DNA of 49,222 nucleotides from Escherichia coli (lineage in GTDB: Bacteria; Pseudomonadota; Gammaproteobacteria; Enterobacterales; Enterobacteriaceae), in NCBI RefSeq assembly GCF_003334255.1, contig NZ_QOWU01000039.1. One strand, written 5' to 3'. Every line of letters begins with the position of its first letter. Positions within the stretch are counted from its first letter, which is position 1. Made by a program: the position numbers and the translations under genes. This document shows positions 10,563 through 27,877 of this stretch, in pieces. The notes beneath the pieces were generated by a model. It saw only the letters and a program-made list of their open reading frames with translations. It had not been told where the DNA came from and made no database searches.

Positions 10563-11276
10563 ATGATTAAAAATTTGCCGCAAATAGTGTTGTTGAATAT
10601 TGTCGGCCTCGCGCTGTTTCTTTCCTGGTATATCCCCGTTAATCATGGATTCTGGTTGCCGATTGATGCGGATATTTTTTATTTCTTTAATCAGAAACTG
10701 GTCGAAAGTAAGGCCTTTTTGTGGCTGGTTGCATTGACCAACAATCGCGCCTTCGACGGTTGTTCACTGCTGGCGATGGGTATGTTGATGCTGAGTTTCT
10801 GGCTGAAAGAAAACGCCCCTGGCAGACGACGTATCGTGATTATTGGTCTGGTCATGCTATTAACTGCAGTGGTATTAAACCAGCTGGGTCAGGCATTAAT
10901 TCCTGTAAAACGGGCCAGCCCAACATTGACTTTTACCGATATTAACCGCGTCAGCGAACTGCTCTCTGTTCCCACGAAAGATGCCTCACGAGATAGCTTT
11001 CCCGGCGATCACGGCATGATGCTGCTTATTTTTTCGGCATTCATGTGGCGTTATTTCGGCAAAGTTGCAGGCCTTATCGCCCTTATTATTTTTGTGGTTT
11101 TTGCATTTCCCAGAGTAATGATTGGCGCACACTGGTTTACTGACATCATTGTCGGTTCGATGACCGTGATATTGATCGGTTTGCCCTGGGTGTTGCTGAC
11201 GCCATTAAGTGATCGATTAATCACCTTTTTTGACAAATCACTACCAGGAAAAAACAAACATTTCCAAAACAAATAA
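10563..11276 (+). CDS. lpxT: Lipid A 1-diphosphate synthase (PAP2-family phosphotransferase), 237 aa
   Basis: Start MIKNLPQIVLL inside ORF 10527..11276; membrane protein; synteny. Confidence 0.85.
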   Translation: MIKNLPQIVLLNIVGLALFLSWYIPVNHGFWLPIDADIFYFFNQKLVESKAFLWLVALTNNRAFDGCSLLAMGMLMLSFWLKENAPGRRRIVIIGLVMLLTAVVLNQLGQALIPVKRASPTLTFTDINRVSELLSVPTKDASRDSFPGDHGMMLLIFSAFMWRYFGKVAGLIALIIFVVFAFPRVMIGAHWFTDIIVGSMTVILIGLPWVLLTPLSDRLITFFDKSLPGKNKHFQNK

Positions 11277-11290
11277 CTCACAGTAATTAA

Positions 11291-11333
11291 CATCATCAGG
11301 GTTATTTTTATAGTGAGGATAATCCTGATGATG
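11291..11333. other. Long stem-loop (15-bp arms, 14 of 15 complementary, 12-nt spacer) directly 3' of lpxT; no T-tract
   Basis: CATCATCAGGGTTAT ... ATAATCCTGATGATG read directly. Confidence 0.5.
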
Positions 11334-11687
11334 CGCACCGTGCTTTCATCTATCGAACGCAAAAATCATTCTCTAAGTAAATGAATGGATTGCATGCGTT
11401 TCACTCAATTGTACTTTAATTGACCAACCCCGCTTATTAACTTTCTGTATCACTTTTTCTTATAAAAAATCATGTAAAACCGCTCGCCAAGACCGCACCA
11501 ATCGGGTAATCTCGAACTCGTTTTGCCTCGGCGGTAGATTATCCTCACAGCATATAATTTTGTGCGTTAGTCCACAGATTTGGCCTTAAGGAATTGTTTC
11601 AACATGCCCAGGTAATTAGTCTCGTGTCGCTTGGCATTTTTTTATAACGATATTTGTCGTTAAGGACTTCAAGGGAAAACAAACAAC

Positions 11688-12254
11688 ATGGTCAAATCTC
11701 AACCGATTTTGAGATATATCTTGCGCGGGATTCCCGCGATTGCAGTAGCGGTTCTGCTTTCTGCATGTAGTGCAAATAACACCGCAAAGAATATGCATCC
11801 TGAGACACGTGCAGTGGGTAGTGAAACATCATCACTGCAAGCTTCTCAGGATGAATTTGAAAACCTGGTTCGTAATGTCGACGTAAAATCGCGAATTATG
11901 GATCAGTATGCTGACTGGAAAGGCGTACGTTATCGTCTGGGCGGCAGCACTAAAAAAGGTATCGATTGTTCTGGTTTCGTACAGCGTACATTCCGTGAGC
12001 AATTTGGCTTAGAACTTCCGCGTTCGACTTACGAACAGCAGGAAATGGGTAAATCTGTTTCCCGCAGTAATTTGCGTACGGGTGATTTAGTTCTGTTCCG
12101 TGCCGGTTCAACGGGACGCCATGTCGGTATTTATATCGGCAACAATCAGTTTGTCCATGCTTCCACCAGCAGTGGTGTTATTATTTCCAGCATGAATGAA
12201 CCGTACTGGAAGAAGCGTTACAACGAAGCACGCCGGGTTCTCAGCCGCAGCTAA
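11688..12254 (+). CDS. mepS: Peptidoglycan DD-endopeptidase / LD-carboxypeptidase, NlpC/P60 lipoprotein
   Basis: 188-aa ORF; lipobox LLSAC; NlpC/P60 catalytic region with conserved Cys (GIDCSGF). Confidence 0.95.
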
Positions 12255-12298: not shown

Positions 12299-12330
12299 TG
12301 AAAGCACTGCTTAGGCAGTGCTTTTTTGTT
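12299..12330 (+). terminator. Intrinsic terminator after mepS
   Basis: Stem AAGCACTGC/GCAGTGCTT followed by TTTTTTGTTTT. Confidence 0.7.
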
Positions 12331-26084: not shown

Positions 26085-27845
26085 ATGGTAACTCATCGTC
26101 AGCGCTACCGTGAAAAAGTCTCCCAGATGGTCAGTTGGGGGCACTGGTTTGCACTGTTCAATATTCTGCTTTCGCTCGTCATTGGCAGCCGTTACCTGTT
26201 TATCGCCGACTGGCCGACAACGCTTGCTGGTCGCATTTATTCCTACGTAAGCATTATCGGCCATTTCAGCTTCCTGGTGTTCGCCACCTACTTGCTGATC
26301 CTCTTCCCGCTGACCTTTATCGTCGGCTCCCAGAGGCTGATGAGGTTTTTGTCCGTCATTCTGGCAACGGCGGGAATGACGCTATTACTGATCGATAGCG
26401 AAGTCTTTACTCGTTTCCATCTCCATCTTAATCCCATCGTCTGGCAACTGGTTATCAACCCAGACGAAAATGAGATGGCGCGCGACTGGCAGCTGATGTT
26501 CATCAGCGTGCCGGTTATTTTATTGCTTGAACTGGTGTTTGCGACGTGGAGCTGGCAAAAGCTGCGCAGCCTGACGCGTCGTCGACGCTTCGCGCGCCCG
26601 CTGGCCGCATTCTTATTTATCGCCTTTATCGCCTCGCATGTGGTGTATATCTGGGCCGATGCCAACTTCTATCGCCCGATCACCATGCAGCGCGCTAACC
26701 TGCCGCTTTCGTACCCGATGACGGCGCGACGTTTTCTTGAGAAGCATGGTCTGCTTGATGCGCAGGAGTATCAACGCCGTCTTATTGAGCAAGGTAATCC
26801 AGACGCCGTTTCCGTTCAGTATCCGTTAAGCGAACTGCGCTATCGCGATATGGGCACCGGGCAGAATGTGCTGTTGATTACTGTCGATGGCCTGAACTAC
26901 TCACGCTTCGAGAAGCAGATGCCTGCGCTGGCAGGTTTTGCTGAGCAAAATATTTCGTTCACGCGCCATATGAGCTCCGGCAACACTACAGACAACGGCA
27001 TCTTTGGCCTGTTCTATGGCATCTCGCCGAGCTATATGGACGGCATTCTGTCGACCCGTACGCCTGCGGCATTAATTACTGCGCTTAATCAGCAAGGCTA
27101 TCAGCTGGGGTTATTCTCATCAGATGGCTTTACCAGCCCGCTGTATCGCCAGGCATTGTTGTCAGATTTCTCGATGCCGAGCGTACGCACCCAATCCGAC
27201 GAGCAGACCGCCACGCAGTGGATCAACTGGCTGGGACGCTACGCACAAGAAGATAACCGCTGGTTCTCGTGGGTTTCTTTCAATGGTACTAACATTGACG
27301 ACAGCAATCAGCAGGCATTTGCACGGAAATATAGCCGGGCGGCAGGCAATGTCGATGACCAGATCAACCGCGTGCTCAATGCACTGCGTGATTCTGGCAA
27401 ACTGGACAATACGGTGGTGATTATCACTGCCGGTCGGGGTATTCCACTGAGCGAAGAGGAAGAAACCTTTGACTGGTCCCACGGTCATCTGCAGGTGCCA
27501 TTAGTGATTCACTGGCCAGGCACGCCGGCGCAGCGTATTAATGCTCTGACTGATCATACCGATCTGATGACGACGCTGATGCAACGCCTGCTACATGTCA
27601 GCATACCTGCCAGCGAATATTCGCAAGGTCAGGATTTGTTCAACCCTCAACGCCGTCATTACTGGGTTACCGCAGCGGATAACGATACGCTGGCAATTAC
27701 CACCCCGAAAAAGACGCTGGTACTGAACAATAACGGTAAATACCGCACTTACAACTTACGTGGTGAAAGAGTGAAAGATGAAAAACCACAGTTAAGTTTG
27801 TTATTGCAAGTGCTGACAGACGAGAAGCGTTTTATCGCTAACTGA
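26085..27845 (+). CDS. yejM: Inner-membrane protein YejM (PbgA/LapC): N-terminal TM domain plus periplasmic sulfatase-like domain
   Basis: 586-aa ORF; N-terminal hydrophobic helices; synteny upstream of proL. Confidence 0.9.
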   Translation: MVTHRQRYREKVSQMVSWGHWFALFNILLSLVIGSRYLFIADWPTTLAGRIYSYVSIIGHFSFLVFATYLLILFPLTFIVGSQRLMRFLSVILATAGMTLLLIDSEVFTRFHLHLNPIVWQLVINPDENEMARDWQLMFISVPVILLLELVFATWSWQKLRSLTRRRRFARPLAAFLFIAFIASHVVYIWADANFYRPITMQRANLPLSYPMTARRFLEKHGLLDAQEYQRRLIEQGNPDAVSVQYPLSELRYRDMGTGQNVLLITVDGLNYSRFEKQMPALAGFAEQNISFTRHMSSGNTTDNGIFGLFYGISPSYMDGILSTRTPAALITALNQQGYQLGLFSSDGFTSPLYRQALLSDFSMPSVRTQSDEQTATQWINWLGRYAQEDNRWFSWVSFNGTNIDDSNQQAFARKYSRAAGNVDDQINRVLNALRDSGKLDNTVVIITAGRGIPLSEEEETFDWSHGHLQVPLVIHWPGTPAQRINALTDHTDLMTTLMQRLLHVSIPASEYSQGQDLFNPQRRHYWVTAADNDTLAITTPKKTLVLNNNGKYRTYNLRGERVKDEKPQLSLLLQVLTDEKRFIAN

Positions 27846-27877
27846 TTAATTATAAATCAGTTAGCGAAATATCTTAC

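Follow-up and report, generated by a model that had tools for sequence, protein, structure and literature searches.

In a canonical intrinsic terminator the stem is followed immediately by about 7-8 nt of U-rich sequence, and the RNA ends about 7-9 nt from the stem. E. coli RNA polymerase needs the U-tract for hairpin-driven release. RNase III cleaves inside a duplex of about two helical turns. Peters and colleagues are said to have put forward, in 2012, the hypothesis that protective stem-loops form the 3' termini of transcripts with ends of the Rho-dependent type. A class of precise 3' ends lying directly past stable stem-loops without U-rich tails was described by Dar and Sorek in 2018 (PMC6061677). 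According to that genome-wide work, such stems guard transcripts that have terminated diffusely further downstream against PNPase and RNase II, and the authors proposed that the type of terminator switches by gain or loss of the U-tract (Dar and Sorek, PMC6061677).

Here, the spacer between lpxT and mepS was analyzed in a stretch of E. coli DNA of 49,222 nt (the window). The stem-loop that follows lpxT resembles the U-less protective stem-loops in being stable, in lying shortly past a stop codon and in having no U-rich tail. In addition, the steady-state 3' end of lpxT lies directly past the stem, and related species have a canonical terminator at the same site, as predicted for switching. The lpxT stem is unusually long and A/U-rich for this class (5 of its 20 pairs are G-C). 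The hairpin thus fits the U-less protective class in its structure and in its 3' end, while Rho-dependent termination and trimming by exonucleases would be carried over to lpxT by analogy. We consider it likely that this hairpin is a stem-loop without a U-tract at the terminator position of lpxT, which marks and protects a stable mRNA 3' end.

The hairpin is like a canonical intrinsic terminator in position, orientation and stability, and it is homologous to true terminators of Klebsiella, Kluyvera, Siccibacter, Cedecea and others. However, it has no U-tract, its stem is A/U-rich, and the lpxT end lies 3 nt from the stem and not in a U-run. A canonical intrinsic terminator was therefore rejected, since the stable stem-loop was present but the two other defining features, the U-tract and an end within it, were lacking. 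The hairpin was also compared with the REP and BIME elements that stabilize mRNA 3' ends. Like these, it is an intergenic palindrome that, by analogy, may be able to block 3' exonucleases. Unlike these, it has no REP consensus and is orthologous rather than dispersed. Its sequence was found at a median of 1 place per genome in 5426 complete E. coli genomes, and this single copy ruled out a repeated element of the REP/BIME kind.

Table 1. Positions of features at the lpxT-mepS locus (window coordinates)
Feature	Position	Strand	Details
lpxT CDS (Kdo2-lipid A phosphotransferase)	10563..11276	+	RefSeq NC_000913.3 2268854-2269567, mapped by identical alignment
lpxT stop codon TAA	11274-11276	+	RefSeq annotation
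Stem-loop at lpxT 3' end	11291..11333	+	left arm 11291-11310, loop 11311-11313, right arm 11314-11333
12-mer copy 1, GTGAGGATAATC	11313..11324	+	last loop base and upper right arm; within the Escherichia-specific 9-nt apical expansion
Mapped RNA 3' end	11336	+	NC_000913.3 2269627; ...GAUGAUGCGC-3', 3 nt past the last paired base
mepS upstream promoter P2	11484..11519	+	-35 TCGCCA 11484-11489, -10 TAATCT 11507-11512, TSS about 11519 (-169 from ATG)
12-mer copy 2, GATTATCCTCAC	11537..11548	+	+19 to +30 of the long (P2) mepS 5' UTR
mepS CDS	11688..12254	+	RefSeq annotation mapped by identical alignment
mepS canonical intrinsic terminator	12300-12325	+	terminator scan; RNA 3' end at 12329

A long stem-loop without a T-tract follows the lpxT stop codon

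The lpxT-mepS spacer of the window is 411 nt long and was, by alignment, base-for-base the MG1655 (K-12) sequence; adding 2258291 to a window position gives the coordinate in NC_000913.3. An inverted-repeat search found two core arms, CATCATCAGGGTTAT (11291-11305) and ATAATCCTGATGATG (11319-11333), which are 93% complementary. Their sole non-Watson-Crick position, G11301 against T11323, becomes a G.U wobble in RNA. Folding of the + strand RNA added 5 pairs, 3 of them U.G, and gave a stem of 20 bp (5 G-C, 11 A-U and 4 G.U pairs) with a loop of 3 nt. The lpxT stop codon is 14 nt upstream of the hairpin, whose free energy in a 91-nt context was -25.8 kcal/mol (z = -3.9), and none of 200 shuffles folded as well. 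The - strand folded slightly worse (z = -3.4), because the U.G wobbles become A.C mismatches. The sequence 3' of the stem, CGCACCGTGC, has no T-tract and contains 1 T in 8. The sequence-only reading of this DNA had described a long stem-loop just after lpxT, with a stem of 14 of 15 bp, a loop of 12 nt and no T-tract behind it. The fold agreed with the stem-loop, the arms and the missing T-tract, and only the loop size had to be corrected, since 13 nt lie between these arms.

Hairpins with arms of 15 nt, no more than 1 mismatch and loops of 3-20 nt were counted in order to estimate chance. There were 2 in the 49-kb window and 0.025 per dinucleotide shuffle, so that such hairpins were about 80 times rarer in the shuffles. 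A terminator scan of the region did not report the lpxT hairpin among its intrinsic terminators. A scan against Rfam at permissive E-values gave, as its best match over the hairpin, an irrelevant miRNA model (E = 6.3, 15.7 bits against a threshold of 70).

The only other comparable hairpin in the window, TTATCGCTAACTGATTAATTATAAATCAGTTAGCGAAAT, lies at 27833-27869 and has 15-nt arms with 1 mismatch and a 7-nt loop. It overlaps the stop codon of a 586-aa ORF (26085-27845), is not followed by a T-run and lies just upstream of a tRNA-Pro-like sequence. From its length, we take this ORF to be yejM/lapC-like. The hairpin is probably another U-less 3'-end hairpin.

Between the lpxT stop codon and the lpxT hairpin lies the sequence TAATTAACA (11284-11292). 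Its ATTAAC part was conserved in Escherichia, Citrobacter, Salmonella, Enterobacter, Trabulsiella and Yokenella, while the flanks varied. Together with the TAA of lpxT, this sequence provides stop codons in all three frames.

An RNA 3' end is mapped directly past the stem

Published Term-seq data were examined for RNA 3' ends at lpxT. A curated 3' end is listed at 2269627 on the + strand, with the class 'orphan' and a score of 1323 (Adams et al. 2021 eLife, PMC7815308, Supplementary file 1). It corresponds to window position 11336, 3 nt past the stem, and the flanking sequence printed with the entry is the hairpin sequence. The coordinate convention was checked on the entry for the mepS terminator, 2270620, which falls on window position 12329, within the T-run after the 12300-12325 stem. 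In that study 'primary' 3' ends were limited to 50 nt (PMC7815308); the distance of 60 nt from the stop codon to the lpxT end exceeds this limit and is the sole reason for its 'orphan' class. The entry is present once in Supplementary file 1, probably in the sheet for LB at OD 0.4 as judged from its position in the file. A single entry with a low score fits a weakly expressed gene such as lpxT. Supplementary file 2 of Adams et al. lists no bicyclomycin-sensitive region between lpxT and mepS, where the low expression of lpxT could hide one.

The main rival to an exonuclease barrier is weak intrinsic termination, in which the hairpin itself would be the termination site and would work without a U-tract, perhaps aided by NusA or NusG. 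We regard this as unlikely. The great stability of the stem and the lack of a reported Rho termination region in the spacer speak for it, and Dar and Sorek noted that structures of this kind may be intrinsic terminators of low efficiency in the course of a transition (PMC6061677). However, the tail CGCACCGUG contains 1 T in 8, and the end was mapped 3 nt from the stem in place of the typical 7-9 nt. In contrast, the end of the mepS terminator in the same Term-seq table is a typical one, inside the U-tract.

The position of the end also bears on RNase III, which the sequence-only reading had named as a possible user of the stem. The 20-bp stem would then be a processing site that controls the decay of lpxT mRNA, and it does resemble the RNase III substrates in the rnc, pnp and betT mRNAs as a long, nearly perfect duplex; its 20 bp, including 4 G.U pairs, are near the lower limit for such substrates. 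However, the sole curated 3' end lies outside the stem, with none mapped inside it, and stems homologous to it are 9-14 bp long in most of the other genera, which is too short for RNase III, yet they are conserved. A literature search found no paper tying RNase III to lpxT. Processing by RNase III was thus left without support and is highly unlikely.

The hairpin is conserved in position and structure

Conservation was investigated in one genome per species with MepS, which gave 80 Enterobacteriaceae loci. The lpxT gene was directly upstream of mepS in 79 of the 80 species, and the spacer was about 410-425 nt in most of them. An automated search detected a hairpin with a free energy of -12 kcal/mol or lower within 65 nt of the lpxT stop codon (most at 10-45 nt) in 64 of the 80 species. 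The loop limit of this search was 15 nt, and it misses a few long-loop hairpins, such as those of loci L052 and L039; several species outside the 64 had imperfect or long-loop hairpins on inspection.

A T-run (at least 6 T in 8 bases) followed the hairpin in about 14 species, for example in Kluyvera, Cedecea and Atlantibacter, where it is thus a canonical intrinsic terminator. By eye, the hairpins of Siccibacter, Buttiauxella, Dryocola and Klebsiella were of this kind too, with part of the T-run taken up by the predicted stem. The remaining hairpins, among them those of Escherichia, Citrobacter and most Enterobacter, had no T-run behind them. Canonical terminators at exactly this place in related genera are a further point in favor of the intrinsic termination discussed above.

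The base of the hairpin, ATCAGGG...CCCTGAT, was common to Escherichia, Citrobacter, Enterobacter, Kosakonia, Phytobacter, Franconibacter, Trabulsiella and others, with the typical form CATCAGGGATCGTTTTCGATCCCTGATG. The alignment showed that the apex is 9 nt longer in four Escherichia lineages. In Salmonella arizonae this position was taken by a hairpin whose sequence is unrelated.

Covariation was analyzed in an alignment of 39 species over a stem of 14 pairs. The data showed that 85.2% of the cells could pair, compared with 74.5% when partners were shuffled (0 of 500 shuffles reached the observed value) and 29-50% in controls with slid partners. Both sides had changed in 12 of the 14 pairs. 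Starting from CAGGG/CCCTG, compensatory changes gave TAGGG/CCCTA in Kosakonia, CGGGG/CCCCG in Pseudocitrobacter, CAGAG/CTCTG in Enterobacter wuhouensis and CAAGG/CCTTG in Yokenella. As judged from these comparisons, structure rather than sequence is conserved, at the place of a terminator. Among the non-Watson-Crick cells at the inner pairs, G.U occurred 13 times and A.C 4 times. This excess, with the three U.G pairs at the E. coli apex, fits a modest bias towards the + strand RNA, and not DNA or the other strand, as the form that would be kept.

The alignment was also used to weigh a promoter hidden in the hairpin (TTAACA, 16 nt, TATAGT; 11287-11314), which would drive an unannotated transcript toward mepS. 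A consensus scan gave 10 of 12 matches for this site, and its TTAAC part was kept across genera. However, the -10-like TATAGT lies in the variable apex and was lost in E. albertii, Citrobacter, Salmonella and Enterobacter; the 2.1-kb region had 1 promoter-like site, fewer than the 4.1 found in shuffles, and both mepS promoters of the literature lie further downstream. Such a promoter is barely credible.

Within E. coli, the 70-mer around the hairpin was identical to that of K-12 in 36.5% of the 5426 complete genomes, and a 71-mer of the mepS leader had at least 99% identity in 98.7% of the E. coli genomes. The variable site of the hairpin in the sampled strains was the wobble position 11301, which was G, T or C. 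In E. coli 20A24 (L087, 401-470) an IS1A is present inside the right arm, after window position 11324, and the hairpin is therefore dispensable for viability. In E. coli MIN12 (hit H30) the spacer is split at about 11482, adjoining the -35 of mepS P2.

The mepS promoters and leader

The start of spr/mepS at -169 has been reported with the -35 sequence CGCTCGCCA and the -10 sequence GGTAATCT (Mendoza-Vargas et al. 2009 supplement, PMC2760140), and mepS has two promoters 109 nt apart (PMC10798246), a description with which a P2 start at about 11519 is in accord. The -35 and -10 blocks of P2 were conserved across genera. The long mepS leader folded alone was of no unusual stability (z = -0.35).

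Several further observations were made in this leader. Its last 110 nt or so (window 11590-11700; loci L002-L081) were almost invariant across genera, and this conservation is much stronger than that of the lpxT coding sequence (64-97% at the protein level). A direct repeat, ATTTGGCCTTAAGGAATT (11578-11595) and ATTTGTCGTTAAGGACTT (11652-11669), has its copies 74 nt apart; they flank the inferred P1 start at about 11628, and the second copy and part of the first lie in conserved blocks. A perfect TATAAT (11553-11558) lies 5 nt after 12-mer copy 2 in the P2 leader, without a recognizable -35. Other genera have AT-rich sequence at the aligned positions, and the motif could be a third start site or plain leader. 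Term-seq 3' ends at 2269973 and 2269975 correspond to window 11682-11684, 4-6 nt before the mepS ATG, and were scored as Rho-independent by Adams et al. (PMC7815308). They lie just downstream of the inferred OxyS pairing site (about 11664-11675) and may reflect processing or protection linked to the sRNA.

The 12-mer pair matches chance expectation

The sequence-only reading had also noted a second, inverted copy of the hairpin core in the mepS upstream region. The 12-mers GTGAGGATAATC and GATTATCCTCAC are indeed exact reverse complements with 212 nt between them, and copy 2 is present at 11537-11548. With P2 starting at about 11519, copy 2 therefore lies in the transcribed leader of the long mRNA (+19 to +30) and not in promoter DNA. 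Exact 12-mer inverted repeats 20-300 nt apart were then counted: there was 1 in the 49-kb window, compared with 1.05 +/- 1.2 in shuffles.

Copy 1 differed in E. albertii, Escherichia sp. MOD1 and a divergent Escherichia (L002, L003, L004), and was absent from Citrobacter, Salmonella and Enterobacter. Copy 2 was kept within Escherichia, because it is part of the very conserved mepS leader, and was partly kept in Salmonella and Citrobacter as AATTATTCTC.. (ATTAT.C). No co-variation between the copies was seen across the compared species. Both copies were present in most sampled E. coli strains, with copy 2 mismatched in strain EC11. When the entire spacer was folded, the local hairpin was retained and no long-range pairing of the 12-mers was predicted.

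These data were used to judge whether the two 12-mers act jointly, as a protein-binding pair that forms a DNA loop or through RNA pairing of the lpxT 3' end with the long 5' UTR of mepS. Joint action would draw on the 12 of 12 complementarity, on the fact that both copies are transcribed, one at the lpxT 3' end and one in the P2 leader of mepS, and on their occurrence together in most of the sampled strains. However, one pair per 49 kb is the chance expectation, copy 1 was lost in relatives while copy 2 stayed, copy 2 carries the EC11 mismatch, and copy 1 is buried in a 20-bp stem that the whole-spacer fold keeps. Joint action is therefore hardly plausible, and the protein-binding site pair of the sequence-only reading failed on both chance expectation and conservation. 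Because the chance rate was matched, copy 1 was not conserved and no long-range pairing was predicted, the pair was treated as a coincidence, which that reading had also offered, and not as part of the element.

A very long shot is that in E. coli proper the lineage-specific 9-nt apical expansion made a perfect 12-nt complementarity to the long mepS leader, where the stable lpxT 3' fragment or an lpxT-mepS read-through RNA might pair. If true, pairing at the leader would tie the phosphorylation of lipid A to how MepS, a peptidoglycan endopeptidase, is expressed.

Discussion

The mapped end, 3 nt past the stem, and the conserved, covarying hairpin support a 3'-end stability element, one of the options given by the sequence-only reading. 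That reading had held that the lack of a transcript 3' end or processing site, together with a lack of conservation, would speak against the element; a mapped 3' end and conservation are both present, and the objection therefore falls away for the hairpin. By analogy with the U-less protective stem-loops, the following course of events may be proposed. RNA polymerase would pass the hairpin without an efficient stop, because there is no U-tract. Termination or a cut in the RNA would then occur further downstream in the spacer, possibly via Rho. The 3'-to-5' exonucleases PNPase and RNase II would trim the RNA back to the 20-bp stem, which would block them, and the blocked trimming would leave an end 3 nt from the stem base, where the 3' end was mapped.

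An excess of C over G downstream of the hairpin was tried as a proxy for Rho. In E. coli there were 46 C and 25 G in 11337-11520. Comparison of species with and without a canonical terminator gave mean C/G skews of -0.24 against -0.25 (p = 1.0). Because this rut-like bias is equally strong in species with canonical terminators, it was uninformative and gives no evidence for a rut site. Literature searches on the lpxT-mepS locus found no measurement of mRNA stability or exonuclease dependence, and nothing relevant was found on the lpxT and mepS intergenic region or an lpxT terminator.

What is new here is only the assignment of a known public 3' end to the conserved lpxT hairpin, together with its evolutionary series. 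A function is thereby proposed for an unannotated element and for an 'orphan' Term-seq end, and a spurious motif pair is removed, which matters little alone. In E. coli, the hairpin may bear on read-through from lpxT into mepS, with the P2 start 183 nt downstream. For the family, the locus is an example of terminator turnover, in which one covarying hairpin has a U-tract in some genera and is without it in Escherichia, Citrobacter and most Enterobacter; the lpxT series thus illustrates how, as Dar and Sorek proposed, a terminator may switch from an intrinsic to a U-less end or back.
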